From contig JBBTSE010000005.1 in assembly GCA_038064855.1 (NCBI GenBank), positions 1 through 61,120 of the forward strand: a DNA stretch of 61,120 nt. The letters are read 5' to 3'. Origin of the DNA: Patescibacteria group bacterium (GTDB taxonomy: Bacteria > Patescibacteriota > Minisyncoccia > Ryanbacterales > GWA2-47-10b). Below are positions 21,908 to 54,321 of this stretch, piece after piece (within the stretch, counting starts at the first letter, position 1; each line of letters starts with the position of its first letter). Under the pieces are notes generated by a model. That model ran no database searches and was not told where the DNA came from. It was given only the letters and a program-made list of their open reading frames with translations. The position numbers and the translations under genes were made by a program.

Positions 21908-24382
21908 GTGATTTTTAGATCGTTACGCAAGAAGCATAAACATAAACTACTCCTCTGGATCCTCGCCGTCATGACTGTCGGCTTGTTTCTTTTTATACTC
22001 ACAGGAGCCATTCTATTTGCCTTCATTAAAATACCTACCCTCGAAGATTTTCGAGAACGCAAGGTGGCAGAATCGACAAAGATTTATGACCGCACAGGTA
22101 AAATACTTCTCTGGGAAGTACATGGGGAGGAGCGCCGTACCGTAGTGCAGTTTGAAAATATCTCACGCAATGTAAAGAATGCGACCATTGCTATCGAGGA
22201 TTCAAATTTTTATTCACATCATGGCATCAGCCCCCTCTCACTCTTTCGTGTTGTTTTTCTCAACATCTTTCAAGGCAAGCAAGTGGGGAGTGGCGGATCA
22301 ACCATCACACAACAGCTTGTTAAAAATACATTGTTGACGCGCGAGCAAACATTGATACGCAAAGCAAAAGAAATAATCATCGCGGTCAAACTTGAGTCCG
22401 CCTATTCAAAAGATGACATCCTTAATCTCTATCTCAATGAGATACCGTATGGATCTAATACCTATGGTATCGAATCGGCCGCTCAAAACTTTTTTGGTAT
22501 ACCGGCATCCGATGTATCACTCACAGAGGCGGCGTATTTAGCAGCTCTTCCTCAGGCCCCTACCCGCTATTCACCCTACGGCAACAACCGTAAGGATTTA
22601 GAGGCACGAAAAGACCTTGTACTCGAACGCATGCGCACCCTCCAATATATCTCGACGGAAGAATATGAGAGCGCAAAAAAAGAAAAGGTGACATTCCTCC
22701 CCCAACGCAAACAAGGACTCCTTGCCCCCCATTTTGTAATGTATGTCCGTGAGATACTTAATGAAAAATATGGTGAAGATGTAATCGAGCAAGGTGGACT
22801 TGAGGTTATCACCACGCTTGACGCGGACCTCCAGACAAAAGCAGAAGCGATCGTAGCGCGGCGAGCCCCCGACATGCAAAAGAACTTCAATGCCTCAAAT
22901 ATCGCGCTCACCGCCATCGACCCTAAAACGGGGCATATTTTGGTTATGGTTGGTTCGCGCGACTATTTTGATGTAAATAACGATGGCAATTTTAATGTGG
23001 CGCTTGCGCGCCGCCAACCAGGATCTACCTTTAAACCATTGGTATACGCAACTGCGTTTAAAAAAGGATATACACCAGAAACAGTAGTCTTTGATTTGGA
23101 AACAAACTTTGCAGCAGCTGGCGATCCTTATATCCCGCAAAATTATGATGAAAAATTTCGGGGGCCGGTAACGCTTCGTGAGGCACTCGCGCAATCACTC
23201 AATGTGCCTGCGGTGAAAACACTCTATCTCGCGGGTATCGGCGATTCTATTGAGACAGCGCGTGACTTTGGTATTACTACACTCACCAATCAAAACCATT
23301 ATGGACTTACTTTAGTGCTTGGTGGAGGTGAGGTTTCACTCCTTGAGCTCACCTCCGCGTATGGAGTATTTGCCAATCAAGGTATGAAAGTAAATCATCA
23401 CCCTATTATTCAGGTGAAAGATAAGGACGGATCTATTTTGGAAGAAGAAATAGTGCGCTCAGAACTTGCTATTGATACTAATATTACCAATATGATCTCG
23501 AGTATCCTCTCGGACAATGCTGCGCGTACCCCAACCTTTGGTTCACGATCTCCTCTCTATTTTGAGGGGATGTCAGTCGCCGCAAAAACAGGTACTACCA
23601 ATGATTACCGTGATGTCTGGACGGTTGGATACAATCCCAATATGGTAGTCGGTACATGGGCGGGAAATAATGACAACTCTTCAATGACAAAAAATGTCGC
23701 GGGTTTTATTATCGCGCCTCTCTGGCGTGAGTTTATGGATACAGCACTCGCGCAAGTAGAAAAAACAGTATTCACACCACCACAACCGGTGGGGGTGAAA
23801 AAGCCCGTACTTCGTGGTGTTTGGAAGGGATCGCGTGCCTATGAAGTTGATAAAATATCGGAGAATCTCGCTACTCCTTTTACCCCGCAAGACCAGCGGG
23901 AAGAACGAGTGACTCAAGAGATTCATTCGATCCTTTATTGGGTCAATAAAGACAACCCTGATGGCCCGATACCTACTAATCCAGCACAAGACCCACAGTT
24001 TTCGCTCTGGGAAGGCCCTGTGCGTGCGTGGGCACAAAAAAATGGATATGGAGACGGTGATATTTCAGGCAAACCTCTAGAATACGATTCCTCACACTCG
24101 CCTGAAAACTGGCCTAGTATCTCATTTCCAAACAATGAAGAGCGAAAAGTATTTAGTTATGGTGATGATATTGTTTTTCACCCAACTATTACCGGGCATT
24201 ATACTATTGTAGATATTGAAATATTTGTTGATGGTGACTATATACGCTCAGAGAAAGGTGCGTTCCAAAATCTTGAGATTGGCGACTTTGAGACGGGCGA
24301 GCATGTATTAAAACTTAAGGTATATGATATCATCGGCAATAAACAAGAACGAGAAGTTTCTTTTACCGTTGCGGCCCCTTAA
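21908..24382 (+). CDS. Class A penicillin-binding protein (glycosyltransferase + transpeptidase) with extra C-terminal domain
   Basis: GT51 motifs (EDSNFYSHHG, GGSTITQQLVKN), transpeptidase SxxK (PGSTFKP), SxN (SLN), KTG (KTGTT). About 150 aa of additional beta-rich C-terminus. GTG start. Confidence 0.9.
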   Translation: MIFRSLRKKHKHKLLLWILAVMTVGLFLFILTGAILFAFIKIPTLEDFRERKVAESTKIYDRTGKILLWEVHGEERRTVVQFENISRNVKNATIAIEDSNFYSHHGISPLSLFRVVFLNIFQGKQVGSGGSTITQQLVKNTLLTREQTLIRKAKEIIIAVKLESAYSKDDILNLYLNEIPYGSNTYGIESAAQNFFGIPASDVSLTEAAYLAALPQAPTRYSPYGNNRKDLEARKDLVLERMRTLQYISTEEYESAKKEKVTFLPQRKQGLLAPHFVMYVREILNEKYGEDVIEQGGLEVITTLDADLQTKAEAIVARRAPDMQKNFNASNIALTAIDPKTGHILVMVGSRDYFDVNNDGNFNVALARRQPGSTFKPLVYATAFKKGYTPETVVFDLETNFAAAGDPYIPQNYDEKFRGPVTLREALAQSLNVPAVKTLYLAGIGDSIETARDFGITTLTNQNHYGLTLVLGGGEVSLLELTSAYGVFANQGMKVNHHPIIQVKDKDGSILEEEIVRSELAIDTNITNMISSILSDNAARTPTFGSRSPLYFEGMSVAAKTGTTNDYRDVWTVGYNPNMVVGTWAGNNDNSSMTKNVAGFIIAPLWREFMDTALAQVEKTVFTPPQPVGVKKPVLRGVWKGSRAYEVDKISENLATPFTPQDQREERVTQEIHSILYWVNKDNPDGPIPTNPAQDPQFSLWEGPVRAWAQKNGYGDGDISGKPLEYDSSHSPENWPSISFPNNEERKVFSYGDDIVFHPTITGHYTIVDIEIFVDGDYIRSEKGAFQNLEIGDFETGEHVLKLKVYDIIGNKQEREVSFTVAAP

Positions 24383-24662
24383 ACATTACTTTCTCCACAT
24401 CTCCCTGCGGAATACTCTCGAGTAGTGTCTTAAGTATACGGTCTTGATGTTGGTGTATATAATGCTTTAAAATCGCTGAGGATGTATAGATGATAAGAGT
24501 TTTGTCGCGGCACTCAACATTATATTGTCCATCATAGCCTGTAAGAATGGCCTGTAGAGCTCCTGCGACAGTTTCACCTAGTCGCTTCCGTGTAAGCTCG
24601 TGTGATTGATCGATTCGTGCAAATGCGTCCGGGAGAAGTATGAGAATACGATTAAAACTCAT
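24363..24662 (-). CDS. DUF721/DciA-like protein
   Basis: About 100 aa, immediately downstream of and overlapping dnaN by 4 nt. The pattern ..ECRDKTLIIYTSSAILKHYIHQHQDRILKTL....VEKVMFK resembles DUF721. Confidence 0.5.
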   Translation of the reverse strand: MSFNRILILLPDAFARIDQSHELTRKRLGETVAGALQAILTGYDGQYNVECRDKTLIIYTSSAILKHYIHQHQDRILKTLLESIPQGDVEKVMFKGPQR

Positions 24663-25774
24663 ACCGTGCCCTTCATAGGCATGACGATATATATTGATCC
24701 TTCGCGCCCTACCGGCTTAATCATTAATGGTTGTGACTCTGAATTAAAACCAAAAAATAATTTCTCCTCACTATACGACTCTACCCCTTGGAGAAGGTAT
24801 TGAAAGTTGAACACAATAAAAACATCTTCTCCATCAAACTCACCTTTCATAACCCCTTTATACATACCTTGGTTATTCTTACTCTCAATAGTGATTAATT
24901 TCTCTTTTACCGTAAGTGAGAAAGATACACTATTGAGTTTATTGGCAAAAATGCTCGCACGGCGTAATTGAGTGACAATTTCTTGACGGGTAAGAACCCC
25001 GTGAGTTTTAAAATCTTTAGGGATAATTTGTTGATAATCTGGAAAATTCCCTTCAGTGAGTCGTGAATAAAGTGTAATATTTCCAAAACGAAATAGAGCC
25101 TCCCCTTTACCTATTAAAAACTCTACTTGATCACTATCACCTTGATCGGCAAGGCGTATAATCTCCTCAAAAGTACGCGCTGGGAGTAAAAAAGATTCTT
25201 TTGGATTCTTAATTGATAATGAGCTAAGTTTTATCCTTTCTTCACTAAGACGAAAACTATCGGTAGCCGCGATAAGGAGTGTTTCTCTCTCAAGTATAGC
25301 TAAAATACTAGCAAGCTCTGGTTTAATAGCACTTTTCGATACAGAAATAAGTACTCGTGGAAAAAACTGAGTAATATCTTTTTTAAAAATCGTAGCTTTA
25401 TATAACTCTTTAAGTGTAGGAAATGGTGGAAAATCTTCTTGTGGGTACCCTTTTATATTTATTTCCTGCCCTTGGACACTAAGTGTTACATCAACACCAG
25501 TACTCTCAATAGTTATTTTTTCATCCTTAGTGAGTGTAGATATATAAGAAAGAAGTTGTTTTGATGGTATCACCACACTACCTTGTTCACTTACCGTACA
25601 CCGTACAGTTGTTTGAATACCAATCTCAAGATTAGTACCCATAATACGGAGTGATCCACTTTCAGTTGTTATAAAAAATGATCCGAGTATTGGAAGAGTG
25701 ATATCTTTACTCGTAGCTCGTTCCACAATACTGAGAGCCTTTTTTAAATTATCTGCGATAGTTATACACTTCAT
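24659..25774 (-). CDS. dnaN: DNA polymerase III beta sliding clamp
   Basis: 371 aa, three-domain clamp pattern (LPILGSFFI, ATDSFRL, PLMIKP), directly downstream of dnaA. Confidence 0.9.
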   Translation of the reverse strand: MKCITIADNLKKALSIVERATSKDITLPILGSFFITTESGSLRIMGTNLEIGIQTTVRCTVSEQGSVVIPSKQLLSYISTLTKDEKITIESTGVDVTLSVQGQEINIKGYPQEDFPPFPTLKELYKATIFKKDITQFFPRVLISVSKSAIKPELASILAILERETLLIAATDSFRLSEERIKLSSLSIKNPKESFLLPARTFEEIIRLADQGDSDQVEFLIGKGEALFRFGNITLYSRLTEGNFPDYQQIIPKDFKTHGVLTRQEIVTQLRRASIFANKLNSVSFSLTVKEKLITIESKNNQGMYKGVMKGEFDGEDVFIVFNFQYLLQGVESYSEEKLFFGFNSESQPLMIKPVGREGSIYIVMPMKGTV

Positions 25775-25959
25775 ACCGGATTCTATAATAGATTAATTAA
25801 TTAAGTTTTTATCTTTTAGTAGTTATTGTTGTGTGAGGGATAAAGTGTATAAATTATTTTTTCTATACAGTGTACTGAATATTTATTTTTTATAGATTAA
25901 GAAAGTTTTTATATGGTGTGGATAGCGGTTGGATAGAATTGTAATTTGGAAAATATTTT
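25775..25959. other. Candidate oriC (AT-rich dnaA-dnaN spacer with DnaA-box-like 9-mers)
   Basis: Very AT-rich 185 bp. TGTGGATAG (25917-25925) matches TGTGGATAA at 8/9. Neighbouring GTTGGATAG (25928-25936) and GAGGGATAA are 6/9 matches. A/T tracts could serve as an unwinding element. Confidence 0.5.
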
Positions 25960-27330
25960 TTAGCTTTCATACATCTTCCCCCTAATTTGTTTAATTTCTT
26001 CCACAAGTTTTGAGTCTTTCTTCAACTCATTAGAAATCTTTTCATATGCATGAAGTGCGGTAGTATGATCACGCCCACCAAGTTTTTGTCCGATAAATGG
26101 ATATGATCCATGAAAATCTTCACGGAGAAGATACATAGCAATCTGCCGAGGGCGTACCACTTCCCTCCTTCGTGATCGCTCAAAAAGTCCACCCTCTCCA
26201 AGGTCATAATAATGCGCTACAGCGTTGATAATTTGCGATGGGGTCGCAATCCGCTTTGTGGTTCTTGTAAGCTGCTCAAGCGAGATTTTAGCTTCCTCAA
26301 GGGTAAGGGGGCGTCCCTTGTACTTCGATTTTGCAAGAATGATATTAAGAGCACCTTCAAGCTCACGGATATTTTTTTGGATAGTAAATGCAATATATTC
26401 AAGTACAACATCCGCTATAATCGGTTCTTTAGTGCCCTGCTTGAGTCTTAAGATGGCGAGGCGCGCTTCGTACTCTGGTTCACTAATATCAGCGTTGAGC
26501 CCAGCTTCAAAGCGTGAACGAAGACGCTCTTCAAGATTTTGAATTGCTTGCGGGGGCTTGTCTGATGAGAAAATAATCTGTTTACCCCGTTCGTATAAAG
26601 AGTTAAAAGTATGGAAAAACTCCTCTTCGCTCTTTATTTTCCCCGCAATAAATTGGACATCATCAATAATAAGAAGATCAACATTTCGGTACTTCTCTTT
26701 AAAATTATGGAGCGGCTCACGGTTTTGAATCGTCGAGACAAGTTCATTCACAAAACGCTCCGAGGTGAGGTAGAGTATTTTAAAGTCAGGATGATCTTTT
26801 TTTACTTGGTTACCGATCGCATGGAGAAGATGTGTCTTCCCAAGCCCCACTCCCCCATAGACAAAGAACGGATTGTAGAGCGCGCCAAGATTTTTTGTTA
26901 TAGAAAGACCCGCGGCGTGGGCAAATTCGTTAAAAGTGCCAATAACAAACGATTCAAAGGTATATCTCGGGTTGAGGTTTGTGTCTCGGTCGACAGAAAA
27001 TTCTTTAAATTCAAGCTGTTCATCGGGCATCTCCACCGGCTCCTGTCGTTTTTTTGTTTGCGGTTGGATGGGCGTGTCTACCGATGAAACGATATAGCTA
27101 GCATTTCGGATCTCAGGCATAGTAGAGCGCAGTGATTTGATGATATTTTTATGAAATTTCTTCTCGAGCCACTCTTTAGCGAAAGCGTTAGGGACCGCGA
27201 TAGTCGCGACACCATCTTCAATGCCGTGGATTGAAGTTTGTTTAAACCAAGTGGCAAAATTGGCACGGGAAACTTCAAACTCGATCTGTCCGAGTACCGA
27301 TTGCCAAAGCTCTTCCTGATTCATATACAT
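25960..27330 (-). CDS. dnaA: Chromosomal replication initiator DnaA
   Basis: Domain I (WQSVLGQIE..FATWF), AAA+ Walker A GGVGLGKTHL, Walker B LLIIDDVQF, domain IV (VRPRQIAMYL..GGRDHTTALHA). Confidence 0.95.
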   Translation of the reverse strand: MYMNQEELWQSVLGQIEFEVSRANFATWFKQTSIHGIEDGVATIAVPNAFAKEWLEKKFHKNIIKSLRSTMPEIRNASYIVSSVDTPIQPQTKKRQEPVEMPDEQLEFKEFSVDRDTNLNPRYTFESFVIGTFNEFAHAAGLSITKNLGALYNPFFVYGGVGLGKTHLLHAIGNQVKKDHPDFKILYLTSERFVNELVSTIQNREPLHNFKEKYRNVDLLIIDDVQFIAGKIKSEEEFFHTFNSLYERGKQIIFSSDKPPQAIQNLEERLRSRFEAGLNADISEPEYEARLAILRLKQGTKEPIIADVVLEYIAFTIQKNIRELEGALNIILAKSKYKGRPLTLEEAKISLEQLTRTTKRIATPSQIINAVAHYYDLGEGGLFERSRRREVVRPRQIAMYLLREDFHGSYPFIGQKLGGRDHTTALHAYEKISNELKKDSKLVEEIKQIRGKMYES

Positions 27331-47772: not shown

Positions 47773-49968
47773 TTACCTACGAGGAGGGCGACCACCACCG
47801 CGCGGACGGTCACTACCCGGACGCGGACGGCGCTCTTCTTTCTCGGCCGTGCGGACAGCAGTTTCTTCTACTGTCTCAGTCATGGCACGGATAGAAAGGT
47901 TGACGCGACCCATTTGGTCGATGCCAGTGATTTTTGCTTCCACCTCATCCCCCACATTCACTATATCGGTTACTTTGCCTACACGGAAGCCAGCAAGTTC
48001 TGAGATGTGCACGAGTCCTTCTTGGCGAGGCGCAAACTCAATCATGGCGCCAAACTCAAATACGCGTGATACCTTGCCGCGGACGATTTCGCCCGCTTCG
48101 TATTCTTTGGTTATCGCGAGCACGCGAGCTTGCGCCATCTCGGCTGCTTCTTGGTTGGTGCCCGTGATATAGACAACACCTGTCTGCTCAATATCAATAG
48201 TAGCTTTGGTCTCGGCGATGATTTCATTGATAGTTTTACCTCCAGGGCCGATGACATCACGGATTTTATCTATAGGAATATTCATCTTGATAACACGAGG
48301 CGCGTGTGCTGGAAGGTTCGCGCGAGGTGCGGGCATAGCTTTGAGGATGACATCCATAATACGCATGCGTGCATCAAGTGCGTCGGCGAGCGCGTCGCGC
48401 AAGATTTTCAATGTTACGCCACCCACTTTGACATCCATCTGCACGGCAGTTACACCTTCAGATGTTCCAGCGGCTTTAAAATCCATATCGCCATGATGAT
48501 CTTCCGGTCCTTGGATATCAGTCAAAACTTTATAGGTGTTTTCATCTTTCATCATGAGACCCATAGCGATACCGCTGACAGGGCGCTTGATCGGCACGCC
48601 TGCGTCCATGAGTGCGAGAATTGAACCGCATACCGAACCCATCGATGATGATCCGTTTGATGAGAGTGTCTCCGATACGATGCGAATAGTGTAAGGAAAA
48701 TCTTCTTTGGCAGGGATAACTGCCTCCAAAGCTTTTTCAGCCAAAGCACCATGACCTATCTCACGGCGTCCGGGTGAACCCATACGACCCGTCTCGCCTA
48801 CTGAAAACGGTGGGAAGTTGTAGTGATGCATGAAATTCTTTTTAGTACGAACATCCATACCTTCGATCAAGAGTTCGTCGCCAGGTGCGCCCAAAGTTAC
48901 GACTGACAAGATGTGTGTATCACCGCGGAAGAAAAGACCTGATCCGTGTGTGCGCGCGAGAAGACCGGTTGACGCAAAAAGCGAGCGCAATTCTTTCATA
49001 CCGCGGCCATCGGGGCGGCGATCTTTCTCAAGAGCGTTGCGATGTACGATATCGTTGATCGCTTCCTCGTACATATCAGAGGTCGTACCCTTTGAAAGTG
49101 TTGGAAATTGTTCTTTGACCGAGCTCATCCATTCAGCTTTTAGTTCGCCAAGCGTATGGTCACGGTGTACTTTGTCAGGCACAAAGAGCGCATCTTCCAA
49201 ACGCTGCATAAAATGCTTGTTCAAAAGATTTACCGTCTCTGCGGGCGCTTCTTCAATCTTTGGCGCAAATTTTTTCTTCGAGATTTTCTTAAAAATTTCG
49301 TTTTGAAATTCGTTTATCTCGTTAATATGTTTGAGTGCGAGTTCAATCGCCTTGGCAAATTCTTCCTCAGGCATTTCTTTTGCCTTACCCTCCAACATAT
49401 TTACTTTGCTATCACAGCCGGATACTACGAGATCGAGCACATGTGCGGCGCGTTCGGTATCGGTCGGGTTGATGATAAAGGCACCATCAGTCTTGCCTAC
49501 GCGCACCGAGCTTACGGGCCCTGCCCATGGGATATCTGAGCTACCGAGCGCAAGGGATGCGGCAAGTACCGCCAAAATATCAGGGCTATTTTCTTCGTCG
49601 AGTGAAAGTGTCGAGGTGACTACCTGTACATCATGACGGATACGATGATCAAAAAGTGGGCGTATGGTGCGGTCGATAAGGCGGCCGATCAAAACGGCTT
49701 CTTCAGACGGACGACCTTCACGGCGCATAAAGCGCGAACCCAAAATACGGCCCGCGGCATAAAACTTTTCCTCGTAATCAACGGTAAGTGGAAAGTATTC
49801 AACCGTCTCGCGTGCATTGTGTGACATTACCGCGGTGGCAAATACCGTGGTACCACCAACAGTCACCATAACTGAACCGTTGGCTTGAGATGCGATATTA
49901 TTAAACTCAACTGTTATTGTTTTGCCAGCGATATCGCGGGTAAAGATTTGTTTTTCAAGCATTGTCAT
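47773..49968 (-). CDS. pnp: Polyribonucleotide nucleotidyltransferase (PNPase)
   Basis: Two RNase PH domains, KH (GPGGKTINEI) and S1 (GEIVRGKVSRVFEFGAMIEF), Arg/Gly-rich tail. Confidence 0.95.
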   Translation of the reverse strand: MTMLEKQIFTRDIAGKTITVEFNNIASQANGSVMVTVGGTTVFATAVMSHNARETVEYFPLTVDYEEKFYAAGRILGSRFMRREGRPSEEAVLIGRLIDRTIRPLFDHRIRHDVQVVTSTLSLDEENSPDILAVLAASLALGSSDIPWAGPVSSVRVGKTDGAFIINPTDTERAAHVLDLVVSGCDSKVNMLEGKAKEMPEEEFAKAIELALKHINEINEFQNEIFKKISKKKFAPKIEEAPAETVNLLNKHFMQRLEDALFVPDKVHRDHTLGELKAEWMSSVKEQFPTLSKGTTSDMYEEAINDIVHRNALEKDRRPDGRGMKELRSLFASTGLLARTHGSGLFFRGDTHILSVVTLGAPGDELLIEGMDVRTKKNFMHHYNFPPFSVGETGRMGSPGRREIGHGALAEKALEAVIPAKEDFPYTIRIVSETLSSNGSSSMGSVCGSILALMDAGVPIKRPVSGIAMGLMMKDENTYKVLTDIQGPEDHHGDMDFKAAGTSEGVTAVQMDVKVGGVTLKILRDALADALDARMRIMDVILKAMPAPRANLPAHAPRVIKMNIPIDKIRDVIGPGGKTINEIIAETKATIDIEQTGVVYITGTNQEAAEMAQARVLAITKEYEAGEIVRGKVSRVFEFGAMIEFAPRQEGLVHISELAGFRVGKVTDIVNVGDEVEAKITGIDQMGRVNLSIRAMTETVEETAVRTAEKEERRPRPGSDRPRGGGRPPRR

Positions 49969-50494
49969 TTTCGTCAGGGGTTCGTTGTTTTCTAATTCTC
50001 ATAATATACTTGCCTTCAGCGCCAAGGTCGATAAACTCGTCAGCTGATTCTTTGAGTTTGAGTGATGTACTGCGGCCAAATGACATCACCTCAACTCTAC
50101 GGCCATTATTTTTCAAATATTCTACCAAGGGTACAAAATCGCCGTCACCCGAGCAGATAACAATAGTATCTACCGTGCTCGCGGTGCGTACCGCGTCAAT
50201 CGCAAGGCCCACATCCCAATCAGCTTTTTTGGCGCCACCATAAAACTCTTGGAGCTCTTTGGCGCGCGTTTCAATGCCAAGGGCGACCAGCGCATCAAAA
50301 AATCCCTTTTCCTCCCCCGTCTTGGTACTGATGACATAGCCAAACGCGCGTATAAGTTGACGATTTGCCACAGCGGTCTTGAGTACTTCTTTGAAGTTTA
50401 CACGCGCGCCAAAGAGTGATCGCGCGGAGTGATACAAATTTTGCGCGTCGATAAACACAGCGACGCGCTGATCTTTATGCTTTCTAAGGTCCAT
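49955..50494 (-). CDS. NYN-domain (LabA/DUF88-like) protein
   Basis: VAVFIDAQNLYHS and IVICSGDGDFVPLVEYLK match NYN nuclease-fold motifs. Confidence 0.7.
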   Translation of the reverse strand: MDLRKHKDQRVAVFIDAQNLYHSARSLFGARVNFKEVLKTAVANRQLIRAFGYVISTKTGEEKGFFDALVALGIETRAKELQEFYGGAKKADWDVGLAIDAVRTASTVDTIVICSGDGDFVPLVEYLKNNGRRVEVMSFGRSTSLKLKESADEFIDLGAEGKYIMRIRKQRTPDENDNA

Positions 50495-50760
50495 TATTTT
50501 TTAATGCCGAAGTGTCGCTGGAGTTCCAAAAGTTTTTTTGGATCACCTTTGGCGATGTACTCGAGCAGTGACTTGCGCTTTGCGACCATTTTCAAAAGAC
50601 CGCGGCGAGAGTGATTGTCCTTGCGGTATTTTTTAAGATGATCGGCGAGTCGTTCGATTTGAGCGCATAAAAGGCCGATCTGAACCTCCGAAGAGCCCGT
50701 GTCTGTCTCATGGACGCGGTGCTTTTCGATGAGTTTAGTTTTTTTCACTGTTGTCAGCAT
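50494..50760 (-). CDS. rpsO: 30S ribosomal protein S15
   Basis: MLTTVKKTKLIEKHRVHETDTGSSEVQIGLL...NHSRRGLLKMVAKRKSLLEY. Start set at ATG 50760; the track ORF's N-terminal extension to 50901 is not S15-like. Confidence 0.9.
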   Translation of the reverse strand: MLTTVKKTKLIEKHRVHETDTGSSEVQIGLLCAQIERLADHLKKYRKDNHSRRGLLKMVAKRKSLLEYIAKGDPKKLLELQRHFGIKK

Positions 50761-50767
50761 GGAAAGT

Positions 50768-50796
50768 ATTCTAACAAACCTTCGGTCTTTTGACAA
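50768..50796 (-). promoter_or_regulatory. rpsO promoter TTGTCA-17-TAGAAT, -10 only 7 nt from the ATG (leaderless candidate)
   Basis: Minus strand has TTGTCA (50796-50791), a 17-nt spacer, TAGAAT (50773-50768), ACTTTCC, then the ATG. No SD. Confidence 0.55.
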
Positions 50797-50818
50797 GAGG
50801 GGTATTTGCCCGTATAGT
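50790..50818 (+). promoter_or_regulatory. Near-consensus promoter TTGACA-17-TATAGT, divergent from rpsO
   Basis: TTGACA at 50790-50795 and TATAGT at 50813-50818. The -35 overlaps the rpsO -35 on the opposite strand. Confidence 0.6.
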
Positions 50819-50824
50819 GGTGCC

Positions 50825-51032
50825 AGCTCCCGTGCGGTATGCTGACCACGCGGGACAACGCAGGCGCGGCCTCGGTTAGGGGAAGGTTCGTGCCGCCACA
50901 CGATCCGCTCACCCTCTTTTCGGGGTCGCGCCTGCTCATCTTGCAGTTCTTTCTCAAATCAATTCTTAAGCCGCACAAAGCGGCTTCGCACTACAGGGCG
51001 AGTCTATCACAGGCTCGCCTTTCGTATTTTTT
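50825..51032 (+). ncRNA. Candidate structured GC-rich RNA (~205 nt) of unknown family, or a long structured xerC leader
   Basis: Hairpin 50829-50854. 76-nt irregular hairpin 50860-50935 with a 9-bp perfect base (GCAGGCGCG/CGCGCCTGC) and at least five G-U pairs valid only in the plus sense. Hairpin 50968-50986. Terminator hairpin 50996-51020 plus TTTCGTATTTTTT. Confidence 0.5.
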
Positions 51033-51052
51033 GCTATACTGATTGTAATATT

Positions 51053-51940
51053 GTGCGACCTATGACGATTGAAAAAATAATGCGTGAGTTTTTGGAAGAT
51101 TTGGAGCTTGAGCGTGGCCGCTCACCAAAGACGATAGAAAACTATAACCACTATCTCAAGCGTTTTTTTACGCACGCCAAAGTCTTAAACCCCGCGCACA
51201 TCTCTGACGACTTGGTCCGCTCGTACCGTCTCGCGCTCAACCGTACGGGACTTTCACCTCGCACGCGCAATTATCACCTTATTGCGTTGCGGATGTTTTT
51301 AAAATATTTAGCCAAGCGCGATATTAAATCACTCGCGCCCGAGCGCGTGGAGCTCGCCAAACTTGGAGACCGAGACATTGATATACCGCACGAAGGAGAC
51401 TTGGAGCGATTGCTGGGTGCGCCAAAAACTGATGCCCTGCAAGGAGTTCGCGACCGCGCGATCTTAGAACTACTGTTCTCAACTGGACTGCGCGTATCAG
51501 AACTCACGGCGCTCAATCGTGACTCGCTCGATCTGGGTCGTGATGAATTTTCCGTGCGTGGCAAGGGTTCGAAGATACGCATCGTATTTTTATCCAAAGA
51601 CGCTAAAGACTCAATCCGCGCGTATCTCTCCAAGCGCGGTGATATGTCAGAAGCACTTTTTGTAGGTACGCAAAAGAAAAATCCTGCGCGTCTCACGCCG
51701 CGTCAGATCGAACGACTTGTAAAACGCTACGCGATTAGCGCAGGCATCCCCGGCAAAGTGACACCACATACTTTGCGTCACTTGTTTGCTACCGATCTTT
51801 TGCTCAACGGCGCTGATATCAGATCAGTACAAGCGATGCTCGGACACTCGTCGATCACCACTACACAAATCTATACTCACATGACTGACCGGCAACTCCG
51901 CGAAGTACACAAAGCATTTCACGGAAAGCGCAGAAAGTAA
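51053..51940 (+). CDS. xerC: Tyrosine recombinase XerC/XerD family
   Basis: N-terminal SAM-like domain (LELERGRSPKTIENYNHYLKRF). Catalytic R (GLRVSEL), K, HxxR (HTLRHLFAT), R/H (LGHSSITTTQIYTH with Tyr). The start may be ATG 51062. Confidence 0.85.
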   Translation: MRPMTIEKIMREFLEDLELERGRSPKTIENYNHYLKRFFTHAKVLNPAHISDDLVRSYRLALNRTGLSPRTRNYHLIALRMFLKYLAKRDIKSLAPERVELAKLGDRDIDIPHEGDLERLLGAPKTDALQGVRDRAILELLFSTGLRVSELTALNRDSLDLGRDEFSVRGKGSKIRIVFLSKDAKDSIRAYLSKRGDMSEALFVGTQKKNPARLTPRQIERLVKRYAISAGIPGKVTPHTLRHLFATDLLLNGADIRSVQAMLGHSSITTTQIYTHMTDRQLREVHKAFHGKRRK

Positions 51941-51962
51941 TTTTTTAAAAATAAAAATGAAA

Positions 51963-51990
51963 ACGGAGGATCCTTGCCAGGATCCTCCGT
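51963..51990. terminator. Bidirectional terminator hairpin ACGGAGGATCC-ttgcca-GGATCCTCCGT
   Basis: 11-bp perfect stem. An A/T-rich run on the left gives a U-tail for the minus-strand small-ORF operon; the tail for xerC is weaker (GCCGTTTCGG). Confidence 0.65.
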
Positions 51991-52102
51991 GCCGTTTCGG
52001 GTCAACTCCCAATGCCGTGGGTTATTGCCCTACCTGTTTCGTCATCACGACGCATAGTGGGTGAGTGTTTGCCGTCACTCCCCTAGCGCCAGTATCCATC
52101 TG

Positions 52103-52303
52103 TCAGCAGCTGATGCACCGTGCCGGCGGCGTCATTGCCGTGATCTGCGGACGCGGATGCTCGCGCGTCCTCCCCTCGCGGTTGGCGCGAACGATCGCCT
52201 CGTCTTCGCGCACCATGCGGTCGGTGTTGAGCGGATAGCGAGTATCGCTTCCTGATGCCGCCACATGCGACCACTGACCTACTGACGGATTCCACCTGCT
52301 CAT
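52103..52303 (-). CDS. Hypothetical 66-aa protein (island small ORF 2)
   Basis: SD GAGGGGGA about 4 nt upstream of the ATG. GC-rich, ends ..PPARCISC, followed by terminator 51963-51990. Other overlapping frames lack an SD. Confidence 0.45.
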   Translation of the reverse strand: MSRWNPSVGQWSHVAASGSDTRYPLNTDRMVREDEAIVRANREGRTREHPRPQITAMTPPARCISC

Positions 52304-52349
52304 ACTTCCCCCTCGCTAGAGCTCCCCCATGGAGCTCATCTGTGAATTG

Positions 52350-52517
52350 CTACCCTCTCCGATCCCCGTCTTCGTGGGGGTTCTGCTGCGAGCCAGATTC
52401 GTTCGGCGCGGCCTGAGCGGTACGATCCCTCATCGCCTCCGGGAGTCTCCTTGGTCCCCGGTTTGGTGTGCGTAGAGTGGTACGCGCGCGCGTCACGATT
52501 CTGTCCTTTCGCTTCAT
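52350..52517 (-). CDS. Hypothetical 55-aa basic protein (island small ORF 1)
   Basis: Hand-translated as MKRKDRIVTRARTTLRTPNRGPRRLPEAMRDRTAQAAPNESGSQQNPHEDGDRRG. SD AAGGAGGG 3 nt upstream of the ATG. Below the ORF-track cutoff. Confidence 0.45.
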   Translation of the reverse strand: MKRKDRIVTRARTTLRTPNRGPRRLPEAMRDRTAQAAPNESGSQQNPHEDGDRRG

Positions 52518-52571
52518 GGTCCCTCCTTGTGGGGTTTGTCAGCCAAAAGGCCGACTGGTTTTCTGTTCATT

Positions 52572-52599
52572 ATTCTATACCTGACCCAAAATATTGCAA
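52572..52599 (-). promoter_or_regulatory. Candidate promoter TTGCAA-16-TAGAAT for the small-ORF operon
   Basis: Minus strand has TTGCAA (52599-52594) and TAGAAT (52577-52572). A 5'-UTR hairpin GTCGGCC-tttt-GGCTGAC follows. Confidence 0.4.
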
Positions 52600-52673
52600 G
52601 AGTGTCGTATTTATGGTCTTCTATAACATCAAAAAATCGTTGAAGAATAAGGGTTTTTGGTATGTTAAGGCAC

Positions 52674-52702
52674 TTGACTTTTATCATATTATTTGGTATA
52701 AT
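52674..52702 (+). promoter_or_regulatory. Strong promoter TTGACT-17-TGgTATAAT (extended -10) for the island two-gene operon
   Basis: TTGACT at 52674-52679, TG at 52694-52695, TATAAT at 52697-52702. About 115-nt leader before ATG 52825, with GGAG 7 nt upstream. Confidence 0.65.
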
Positions 52703-52824
52703 AGCTTCAGAAATACAGATAAGGACAGAACCTTGATTTGTGAACTCCAAGTCCAAAAGGGCTTGAAAAATAAGGCAAAAACAACAACGAAGCGCTGAAA
52801 TACTGCGCAAAATGGAGTCCAGAG

Positions 52825-54321
52825 ATGGTACAAAGAGGTAGAGGGAACAAAGGTGCCGGCAACGCCAATAACGCGGGAAACCGTCAACCCCGTCTTCAGA
52901 TCTCGAAGGTCGACTATACGACCCCAGAGAAGCTGAAGGATGGAACATTCACTATTCTTCTTCTTGCCGACATCGTCGGCGGGAACGGATCTGAGCAGAT
53001 CCGGTTCTATCTCGATCGGTCCCCTCAAGGGACCAGTGCCAGCGTGGAGCAGTACGGACGTACTGGTTACGCCCAAACTCGCACTGATTCCGGACTCCGG
53101 ATCGGCACGCGCTATGAAGTCGCGGCCGAGATCATCGCCGGCGGCAAGGTCGTCGGCAACCGCGTTGCGCGGTTCATCGTCTTGCCAAAGGAGACGAAGA
53201 AGTCTCTAGCGGCTAAGAAGGCGCAGAAAGTGCGCGACGAGATCGAGCTCAAGCGACTTGAGCGCGAGCTCAGAGAGCTTGCGCGAGAGCCATCGGTAAC
53301 CGCGCGAGAGATCAAGGATCTGCAGGAGCAGGTCGCCGTGATCAAGGCTCGTCGCGAGCGCGACGAACTCTTTCGCGGGCCAACACTCCTCGAGCGGGCG
53401 GCCAAAAATGTCACTGCACAGATCATGCTCACGAAGCTCCGCAAGGAGCTCTCCAATCTCGGTAAGATACCGGCAAAGGAGATCGTGAGGCCCGTGATCG
53501 AGTGTGTGGGATCAAATGGTCACTACATTGTGAGTGGATGCGTGGTCTACAAGGACTCGTCGTTTGCAACGAGGTACCCCGTGCTCATCTCGGCCGCTCC
53601 CTATCGTGGTATCCCCACGGTCGAGCCAGTGCTGACTGATGAGCATGGCTACTTCACGCACACTGTCCAGTTCGGTGAACGGTCCGCTGACATCCATGTG
53701 ATCGTCGGTGGGACGGGAGGCTACGAGGAGTTTTACAATGACTACGCCGGCCCCAAGCCGCGCGGTCTGCGTAACAACAATGTACGCCTCGCCACCATCT
53801 GGCTCATCGCGGCACTCCTTCTGGTATTCAACTTGTGGTTGCTACCCGACGCGCCACTGCCGAGCAAGGTTGAAGGTTTGCCCGAAGGTTTGCGGGAGGG
53901 CTTGCTCTCCATGCATCCTGAATGGGCACCAACCGCTTGGCAGTCATTCCTCTGGTTCTTCAACCGAGGTATGTGGGGTTCCTTCTGGATCCTTGTGGTT
54001 GCCGGTCTCGTTTACCTGCCCGTCGCGTTTAGTGACGAGGCAGCAGGTCTGGGGCGAGCAGTCGTGAACATCGCCTCAAAGAAGCAAAGTGGCGGTGGAG
54101 GCAAATCTCCACCCGCGAGTGGAAGCCCGCAGGCGGGCACAACTCCGACATCAGATGCGGATCCGTTAGCCTTCCTCAAGGGGAAGGGGCCATTTATCAC
54201 GGCTATCGGAGCTGTAATCTTCACTATTGTGACTGAATGGCTCGAGCGCAGGCGTGATCGAAAGATCCACTCGCTCGCAAACAAGATTGTCGGCGGCAAG
54301 CCGACAGGAGGATCTGCATGA
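52825..54321 (+). CDS. Hypothetical 498-aa protein: basic N-tail, beta-rich domain, coiled coil, second beta-rich domain, C-terminal TM cluster
   Basis: Long ORF with SD in a GC-rich island. Charged heptad-like stretch KKAQKVRDEIELKRLERELRELAREPSVTAREIKDLQEQVAVIKARRERDE. TM segments LATIWLIAALLLVFNLWLL, WGSFWILVVAGLVYLPVAF, FITAIGAVIFTIV. No family or catalytic motif recognised. Confidence 0.65.
   Translation: MVQRGRGNKGAGNANNAGNRQPRLQISKVDYTTPEKLKDGTFTILLLADIVGGNGSEQIRFYLDRSPQGTSASVEQYGRTGYAQTRTDSGLRIGTRYEVAAEIIAGGKVVGNRVARFIVLPKETKKSLAAKKAQKVRDEIELKRLERELRELAREPSVTAREIKDLQEQVAVIKARRERDELFRGPTLLERAAKNVTAQIMLTKLRKELSNLGKIPAKEIVRPVIECVGSNGHYIVSGCVVYKDSSFATRYPVLISAAPYRGIPTVEPVLTDEHGYFTHTVQFGERSADIHVIVGGTGGYEEFYNDYAGPKPRGLRNNNVRLATIWLIAALLLVFNLWLLPDAPLPSKVEGLPEGLREGLLSMHPEWAPTAWQSFLWFFNRGMWGSFWILVVAGLVYLPVAFSDEAAGLGRAVVNIASKKQSGGGGKSPPASGSPQAGTTPTSDADPLAFLKGKGPFITAIGAVIFTIVTEWLERRRDRKIHSLANKIVGGKPTGGSA

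Follow-up and report, generated by a model that had tools for sequence, protein, structure and literature searches.

A candidate small RNA gene restricted to one Ryanbacteria genus in the divergent rpsO-xerC spacer

Results

Structure of the rpsO-xerC locus

The stretch of DNA analysed here (the window; 61,120 nucleotides (nt), contig C5) belongs to the 805 kb genome (G000; 48.6% G+C) of a member of the Patescibacteria, a tiny uncultured groundwater bacterium whose closest loci, retrieved with XerC as anchor, are titled Candidatus Ryanbacteria. Within the window, the gene for ribosomal protein S15 (rpsO; 50494-50760, minus strand) and the gene for a XerC/D-type tyrosine recombinase (xerC; start ATG at 51062, plus strand), both recognised with Pfam, diverge from a spacer of 301 nt. 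This spacer holds a structured unit (50825-51032, plus strand) with a promoter, four hairpins and an intrinsic terminator, and its G+C content of 57.7%, against 48.3% in the flanking genes, bears out the GC-richness reported in a first-pass annotation made from the letters of the sequence. We regard the unit as probably a free-standing gene of ~205–208 nt for an orphan non-coding small RNA (sRNA), restricted to one genus and dispensable within it.

Consensus scanning placed a sigma-70-type promoter (TTGACA-17-TATAGT, 11 of 12 positions) at 50790-50818 on the plus strand, with a -35 box that is overlapped by the -35 box of the divergent rpsO promoter (50796-50768, minus strand, 10 of 12 positions). 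At the other end of the unit, an intrinsic terminator (P4) consists of an 11-pair stem at 50995-51021 with the loop AUCAC, followed by TTTCGTATTTTTT up to 51032 on the plus strand, so that the predicted RNA would start near A50825 and stop at the T run ending at 51032. Folding of the plus strand yielded -101.6 kcal/mol (z = -6.8), a stability attained by none of 200 shuffles, and the minus strand gave z = -4.9. From its 5' end the plus-strand fold presents P1, a hairpin of 7 + 3 pairs (50828-50855) whose loop contains the ATG of a 67-codon open reading frame (ORF); P2, a 76-nt irregular hairpin (50860-50935) with a GC-rich conserved base (50860-50875/50920-50935, a run of 16 pairs) and a variable apex (UCGUG-CCGCCA-CACGA in the window); an unpaired, pyrimidine-rich linker (50936-50967); and P3, a small hairpin AAGCCGC-ACAAA-GCGGCUU (50968-50986), ahead of the terminator. 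Sequence identity and folds together single out a conserved core within the linker, CAGTTCTTTCTCAA (50944-50957, plus strand), as a candidate interaction site. The centroid fold of the window leaves this core unpaired, as do the folds of the homologous variants L004 and L095, and the minimum-energy fold of the window contains two short pairs inside it. The promoter, P1, the 76-nt hairpin, P3 and the terminator all lie where the first-pass annotation had put them, and its count of at least six G-U pairs valid only on the plus strand agrees with the 6 found among the 67 pairs of the minimum-energy fold. The aligned helices of the variants described below contain 24 G-U cells (our own count from the covariation table), which on the minus strand would give A-C mismatches, and on that strand the terminator hairpin has no T run; because the G-U pairs and the T run are confined to the plus strand, the unit was assigned to it.

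Distribution of the unit

A DNA search of 61 genomes (G000 and 60 relatives) recovered the unit in G000, in G002 (83% identity, 212 nt) and in G003 (81% identity, only the last 77 nt), and two further occurrences (L094 and L095), again in the rpsO-xerC spacer, came from the 80 metagenome loci that were fetched, together with 80 genome loci, using XerC as anchor. The five variants available (window, L004, L005, L094 and L095) represent three of the four species genomes of a single Ryanbacteria genus and two metagenome contigs. Each of them presents TTGACA with a TATAGT, TATACT or TAGACT box, and each ends in the terminator. In L005, which derives from G003, P1 and P2 are replaced by unalignable sequence that likewise folds into a hairpin, of 9 pairs, and a long one after it, with the linker, P3 and the terminator still recognisable. 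The genome G001 (contig C13, identical to L014:2372-2500) carries a natural deletion allele, a 129-nt spacer without the RNA body that keeps TTGACA, the 3' half of the terminator only and the xerC-side TGGTATACT box; its -10 box, decayed to TGTAGT, escapes the promoter scan. Loss of the unit from one of the four species genomes of the genus implies that it is dispensable. The unit is absent from more distant Ryanbacteria (XerC 70–77% identical) and from three other genera of the family, whose spacers measure 76–109 nt overall and about 87–109 nt in the three genera.

A covariance model built from four variants (R1) was run on 101 genomes and gave convincing matches only in G000, G002 and G003. 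The sole match below E = 0.01 outside the genus (G080, E = 4e-5) was rejected, being the antisense of a transfer RNA (tRNA) gene beside a chance copy of the linker motif. Each variant matches only this locus in G000, save for chance matches of at most 16 nt, and the variant module of L005 is likewise present once in G003; this copy number rules out a dispersed repeat, whether a miniature inverted-repeat transposable element or an element resembling repetitive extragenic palindromes. Comparison by blastn found no similarity to phage or plasmid records. A viral origin was also discarded, as a degenerate pattern of the unit occurs in 9 viral contigs at about the frequency of chance (a rough estimate) and none of these contigs matches R1 at E ≤ 0.1. 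Contigs from four DNA sequencing runs, which covered the stretch in part, included one identical over 50856-51046 (run X5) and no new variant.

Covariation and selection

The RNAalifold consensus of the four alignable variants (window, L004, L094 and L095) comprises 53 pairs, with 93.8% of aligned cells paired. Covariation, which the first-pass annotation had proposed as a check on its fold, is present: 14 of the 53 pairs changed on both sides, compared with 5.0 ± 1.7 in shuffled alignments (none of 500 reached 14) and with 1–5 in slid controls whose partners were moved by 1–3 columns. Such changes affected 4 of the 10 pairs of P1, 3 of 16 in the P2 base (where a further 10 are invariant), 3 of 9 in the inner P2 helices, 2 of 5 in P3 and 1 of 11 in the terminator, all 44 aligned cells of which are paired. 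The position of P1 is occupied by a hairpin of 9–13 pairs in all five variants despite an aligned identity of 50%, and P3 also occurs in all five, with differing letters in stem and loop.

Pairwise identity among the four variants is 0.89 in the linker core, 0.82–0.84 in the P2 base, 0.83–0.91 in the terminator stems and 72% in the terminator loop; the corresponding values are 0.50 for P1, 0.55 for the P2 apex and 0.22–0.34 for the linker outside its core. Neutral change was gauged from the fourfold-degenerate sites of xerC, which differ by 39–43% between the window and L004, L005 and L095 (L094 and L014 were left out of this comparison because indels break their codon register and make the rows unreliable). 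Taken with the covariation, these values indicate compensatory maintenance of the helices and purifying selection on the linker core, the base of P2 and the whole terminator, loop included, with the remainder drifting or being replaced.

Coding potential

The 67-codon ORF (50839-51042), which the first-pass annotation had singled out as speaking against an RNA gene if it proved translated and conserved, is present in the window and is not conserved across the five variants. Their longest ORFs measure 67, 53, 68, 72 and 28 codons, with differing frames and stops and no shared peptide, and Pfam gave no match for the 67-aa product. Compared with the window, L004 has lost one nucleotide and gained one inside P2, and it differs by a further indel in the linker. 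The linker core is read as FFL in the window and L095, as VLS in L094 and as SSFS in a 29-codon ORF of L004, and these differing frames place its conservation at the nucleotide level. A small protein-coding gene was rejected on the grounds of its unconserved frames and the missing Pfam match.

Comparison with known RNA families

At gathering scores Rfam returned only tRNAs for the whole window, and at E ≤ 10 it returned three chance-level matches in 50600-52900, none of them in the unit, in agreement with the earlier view that the unit fits no known class. Signal recognition particle (SRP) RNA (RF00169/RF01854) had no match at the locus or anywhere in the genome at E ≤ 10, and its models were above cut-off in none of 61 related genomes. 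6S RNA (RF00013) had no match at the locus either, its matches in the genome being limited to E = 2.6 and 4.2 on other contigs. The transfer-messenger RNA gene lies on contig C2 instead and RNase P RNA on contig C4 (172 bits), with nothing at the locus for either of them. The unit resembles SRP and 6S RNA in its size class (~100–260 nt), GC-richness, long irregular hairpin and free-standing gene, and neither family is above cut-off elsewhere in this genome; it differs from them in lacking a model match and any end-closing stem or central bubble, as it folds into four separate hairpins and its ends pair by at most 2–4 bases. Its dispensability within the genus is also unlike a housekeeping RNA.

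The protein side of the SRP was equally elusive, which counts further against reading the unit as SRP RNA. The M domain of Ffh (PF02978) had no match in the genome, and six-frame motif scans of G000 found no SRP-type GTPase, neither Ffh nor FtsY; an 18-bit match of PF00448 in a 354-aa ORF was set aside because it covers the P-loop only, the ORF being read by eye as a PilT/GspE-type ATPase. A full-length SRP54 GTPase domain was found in none of G000, 31 genomes of the class and 61 of the phylum, where matches were confined to the P-loop and nominally exceeded the cut-off in 1 of the 31 and 3 of the 61. These undetected SRP parts could reflect a genuine loss across the phylum or else a limitation of the tools. 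In the portion of PMC10768705 that concerns them, ftsY and the SRP genes bear the tags of the host (APY09_) and so have no bearing on Patescibacteria. A literature search retrieved no relevant work on non-coding RNA or the SRP in this radiation, as judged from the search results rather than full texts.

The xerC side of the spacer

Between the terminator and xerC, and outside the RNA, the sequence TGCTATACT (51032-51040, plus strand) reads as an extended -10-like element for xerC. All five variants, and also the RNA-less L014, have a TGnTATACT or TGCTATGCT box between terminator and xerC, and we infer that the TGCTATACT box works as the xerC promoter; the consensus scanner does not score promoters that consist of a -10 box only. 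In the RNA-less relative L096, back-to-back promoters share a -35 region, the plus one lying 27 nt before xerC. This arrangement suggests that ~230 nt were probably inserted between an ancestral bidirectional rpsO/xerC promoter and the xerC leader. Such an insertion would have turned the former xerC-side promoter into that of the RNA and left xerC to depend on the TGCTATACT box downstream of the terminator.

The most enriched 5-mers in the 20 nt before the first ATG of the 684 ORFs of at least 150 aa in G000 are TATAC, ATACT, TGCTA and TATAA, and only 13% of these ORFs have a GGAG, GAGG or AGGA core. With words of the -10 box this near to the ATG and so few Shine-Dalgarno cores, most messenger RNAs (mRNAs) of this genome look leaderless or nearly so.

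A short DNA motif, AATATTGTGCGAC (51047-51059, assigned to no strand and, like the box, outside the RNA), lies just before xerC. In diverse Paceibacteria, ATGTCGCACAATATT or its complement forms a motif of 13–15 nt at the xerC promoter or start, in either orientation; the strict pattern occurs in 15 of the 30 spacers of at most 160 nt considered below, and long spacers carry the motif too. It may represent an operator or a recombinase-binding half-site. A dif site was also considered and was provisionally set aside, as no second arm was seen and the GC skew has no terminus here.

A second structured RNA in the same slot

The fetched loci include 64 distinct divergent rpsO-xerC spacers of 41–2044 nt, 30 of them no longer than 160 nt. 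In Yanofskybacteria-like Paceibacteria, the same slot is occupied, in the same orientation, by a different, unannotated structured RNA of ~170–220 nt. A covariance model of this second RNA (R2) located it at L068:847-1068, L071:2215-2435, L105:944-1148, L118:2283-2454, L126:2252-2437 and L129:2097-2270 (the last at 97.7 bits), and an additional occurrence was placed by eye at about 2190-2375 of L116. Its elements are a promoter (TTGCAA-17-TAGGAT), the conserved sequence CGCTCTTTGTACCG, a hairpin whose loop is GAGGGAUAA, and a terminator. The conserved GAGGGA loop of this hairpin and the UCCCUC loop of the terminator complement each other and vary together, as judged by eye (for example GCGAGGGA/UCCCUCGC, UGAGGGA/UCCCUCA and UAAGAGG/CCUCUUA). 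Rfam gave no match for the second RNA at E ≤ 0.1, and a run of R2 on 151 genomes of the class gave none at E ≤ 0.01, an empty answer that is uninformative by the tool's own warning.

The two RNAs are alike in position, behind the rpsO-divergent promoter and ahead of the xerC promoter, in their GC-richness and in the order of their elements, which runs from a 5' hairpin and a variable second one through a conserved pyrimidine-rich stretch to another hairpin and a terminator; they are unlike in that the window RNA has no counterpart of the GAGGGA/UCCCUC loops. Homology was tested in both directions, with R1 scoring 3.7–14 bits on the second RNA, which is noise level, and R2 scoring 8.5 bits (E = 0.29) on the window RNA. 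The two are best described as apparently analogous occupants of one slot whose homology is not demonstrable.

Other features of the window

Beyond rpsO, the next gene encodes a NYN-domain protein (Pfam), and a 731-aa ORF at 47773-49968 was read from its sequence as a putative pnp. Downstream of the xerC start, the minus strand of 51963-52570 holds a GC-rich, ORF-poor stretch of ~600 nt with a promoter-like site at 52599-52572 and a strong terminator at 51990-51963, both on the minus strand; Rfam gave no match for this minus-strand stretch. The cumulative GC skew of the window has an origin-like minimum at ~22000-26000, where the G+C content is 40–41%.

Discussion

A conserved promoter and terminator, covarying helices and a conserved unpaired region, which are features expected of a free-standing trans-acting sRNA gene, are found in the unit, and on balance we favour its interpretation as an orphan sRNA gene. 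Such an RNA would probably act in trans through its conserved unpaired stretches, the linker core and perhaps the terminator loop contacting an mRNA or an RNA-binding protein, with P1 serving as a 5' stabiliser and P2 as a scaffold. It would presumably work without Hfq or CsrA, neither of which was found above cut-off in this genome.

The RsaE/RoxS sRNAs of Gram-positive bacteria act in trans independently of Hfq through unpaired pyrimidine-rich seeds. The unit resembles RNAs of this type in having its own sigma-70-type promoter and intrinsic terminator, a length within 100–250 nt, several hairpins and a conserved unpaired C/U-rich stretch, in a genome where no Hfq was detected. It differs from them in that it matched no Rfam sRNA by sequence or by covariance model, its core is U-rich (UUCUUUCUC) and not of the UCCC type, it is limited to one genus and the duplex scan yielded no target. 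Mimicry of the anti-Shine-Dalgarno sequence is a speculation invited by the tail of the 16S ribosomal RNA (...GGAUUUUCUCCUAG), which shares UUUCUC with the linker; since most genes look leaderless, few targets would be open to an anti-Shine-Dalgarno mode. In G000 (contig C9:1-60) the 16S ribosomal RNA has the 3' end ...GGAAGCTGTGCGTGGATTTTCTCCTAGTAAGG, with CUCCU in the context UUUUCUCCUA, the usual one being CACCUCCUU.

Several observations weigh against an sRNA gene. The transcript and its ends are predictions drawn from signals and comparison. The covariation is good but thin, as it comes from five variants of one genus and relatives can beat shuffles without structure. Duplex energies of the linker at -40 to +30 of the 684 ORF starts were no better than those of 20 shuffled linkers, and of the two RNA-less relatives scanned for promoters only L096 has the arrangement proposed as ancestral, L099 giving no promoter-scan match. 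The deletion in G001 and the replacement of the 5' two-thirds in G003 would also fit a weakly selected or selfish element, and the conservation of terminator and linker could have DNA-level reasons because two promoters adjoin them.

Some of these points lead directly to the idea that the unit is a decaying or selfish insertion, a cassette remnant whose hairpins persist only as a terminator or insulator that shields xerC from a strong bidirectional promoter. The slot is highly variable, as its 64 distinct spacers show, the G+C content of the unit exceeds the genome value of 48.6%, and the unit is found in one genus only, deleted in one species genome and half replaced in another. An insulator, however, needs a terminator only, yet P1 and P3, the base of P2 and the linker core have been kept as well, and the retained parts are compensated or 82–89% identical where neutral sites are ~60% identical. 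With a single copy in G000 and G003 and neither phage or plasmid similarity nor a true match in viral contigs, this explanation seems unlikely to us. A related question is whether the unit serves xerC itself, as a cis-acting leader or attenuator in which conditional read-through of the terminator sets the recombinase level, an alternative that the first-pass annotation had also raised. The unit is co-oriented with xerC and lies directly upstream, with 30 nt from the T run to the ATG; in L096 a promoter at the equivalent position drives xerC directly, which places the unit inside a former xerC 5' region, and structured units of other kinds occupy this place in other Paceibacteria. An attenuator should possess an antiterminator, and none is conserved when the five variants are folded without the 3' half of the terminator: in the window, L004 and L094 all but 3 bases of its 5' half then stay unpaired, and in L095 and L005 this half finds different partners. 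With its 11 pairs and its T run the terminator is strong, Rfam yielded no riboswitch or leader family at E ≤ 10, and the TGnTATACT box stands behind the terminator, where L014 keeps it after losing the RNA body. As no conserved antiterminator was found and xerC keeps a putative extended -10 box of its own, attenuation of xerC is unlikely.

The remaining alternatives concern the P2 hairpin. A small-protein gene or dual-function RNA would require ribosomes to engage either the 67-codon ORF or a Shine-Dalgarno-like tract in P2, GGGGAAGG, which is followed after 3 nt by GUG CCG CCA (GUG at 50890) and would give M-P-P. The order GGGGAAGG-UUC-GUG-CCG-CCA occurs in the window and L004, and L094 has a looser GAGGG-UCGG-AUG. 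The window and L004 are identical there and count once, L095 and L005 lack the tract with its start, and the purine tract is paired with CCCUC inside P2; moreover, the 3' base of P2 is read as GSR in the window and L095 and as VAPAH in L004 and L094, with differing stops. The 67-codon ORF starts (ATG 50839) in the P1 loop without a Shine-Dalgarno sequence, its product has no Pfam match, and Shine-Dalgarno cores are in any case scarce before the long ORFs of this genome, which together make translation of the unit very unlikely. Adjacency to a co-oriented tyrosine recombinase gene raises the further idea that the unit is recombined in folded form, or else serves the Xer-type recombinase as an RNA cofactor, with P2 as the recognised hairpin. 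Integron attC sites and the attP of CTX phage are folded recombination substrates, and the likeness of the unit to attC is known here only from its position beside a XerC/D-type recombinase. The rpsO-side flank of xerC is variable, P2 combines a conserved base with a variable apex, and the P1-P2 module is swapped in G003. The promoter and terminator point to an RNA product instead, xerC and its nearby motif are present in many genomes without the unit, no repeated site was seen at the borders of the unit, and the GC skew minimum at ~22-26 kb of the window leaves no terminus at xerC, so we hold a role in recombination to be highly improbable. We would attach just as little weight to a broader version of it, in which the rpsO-xerC slot is a landing pad where Paceibacteria repeatedly acquire lineage-specific, non-homologous structured RNAs that work with the Xer recombinase as folded recombination hairpins or as cofactors that combine a constant scaffold at the 3' end with a 5' module open to exchange; if true, it would explain the module swap in G003.

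Taken by itself, a genus-restricted and dispensable orphan sRNA with no known target is ordinary for bacteria. The value of the unit as an sRNA candidate lies in its clean signals, its covariation and its defined core, in a radiation for which the literature search found nothing relevant; for these reasons this candidate regulatory RNA may offer a usable entry into the RNA-based regulation of ultra-small, largely leaderless genomes.

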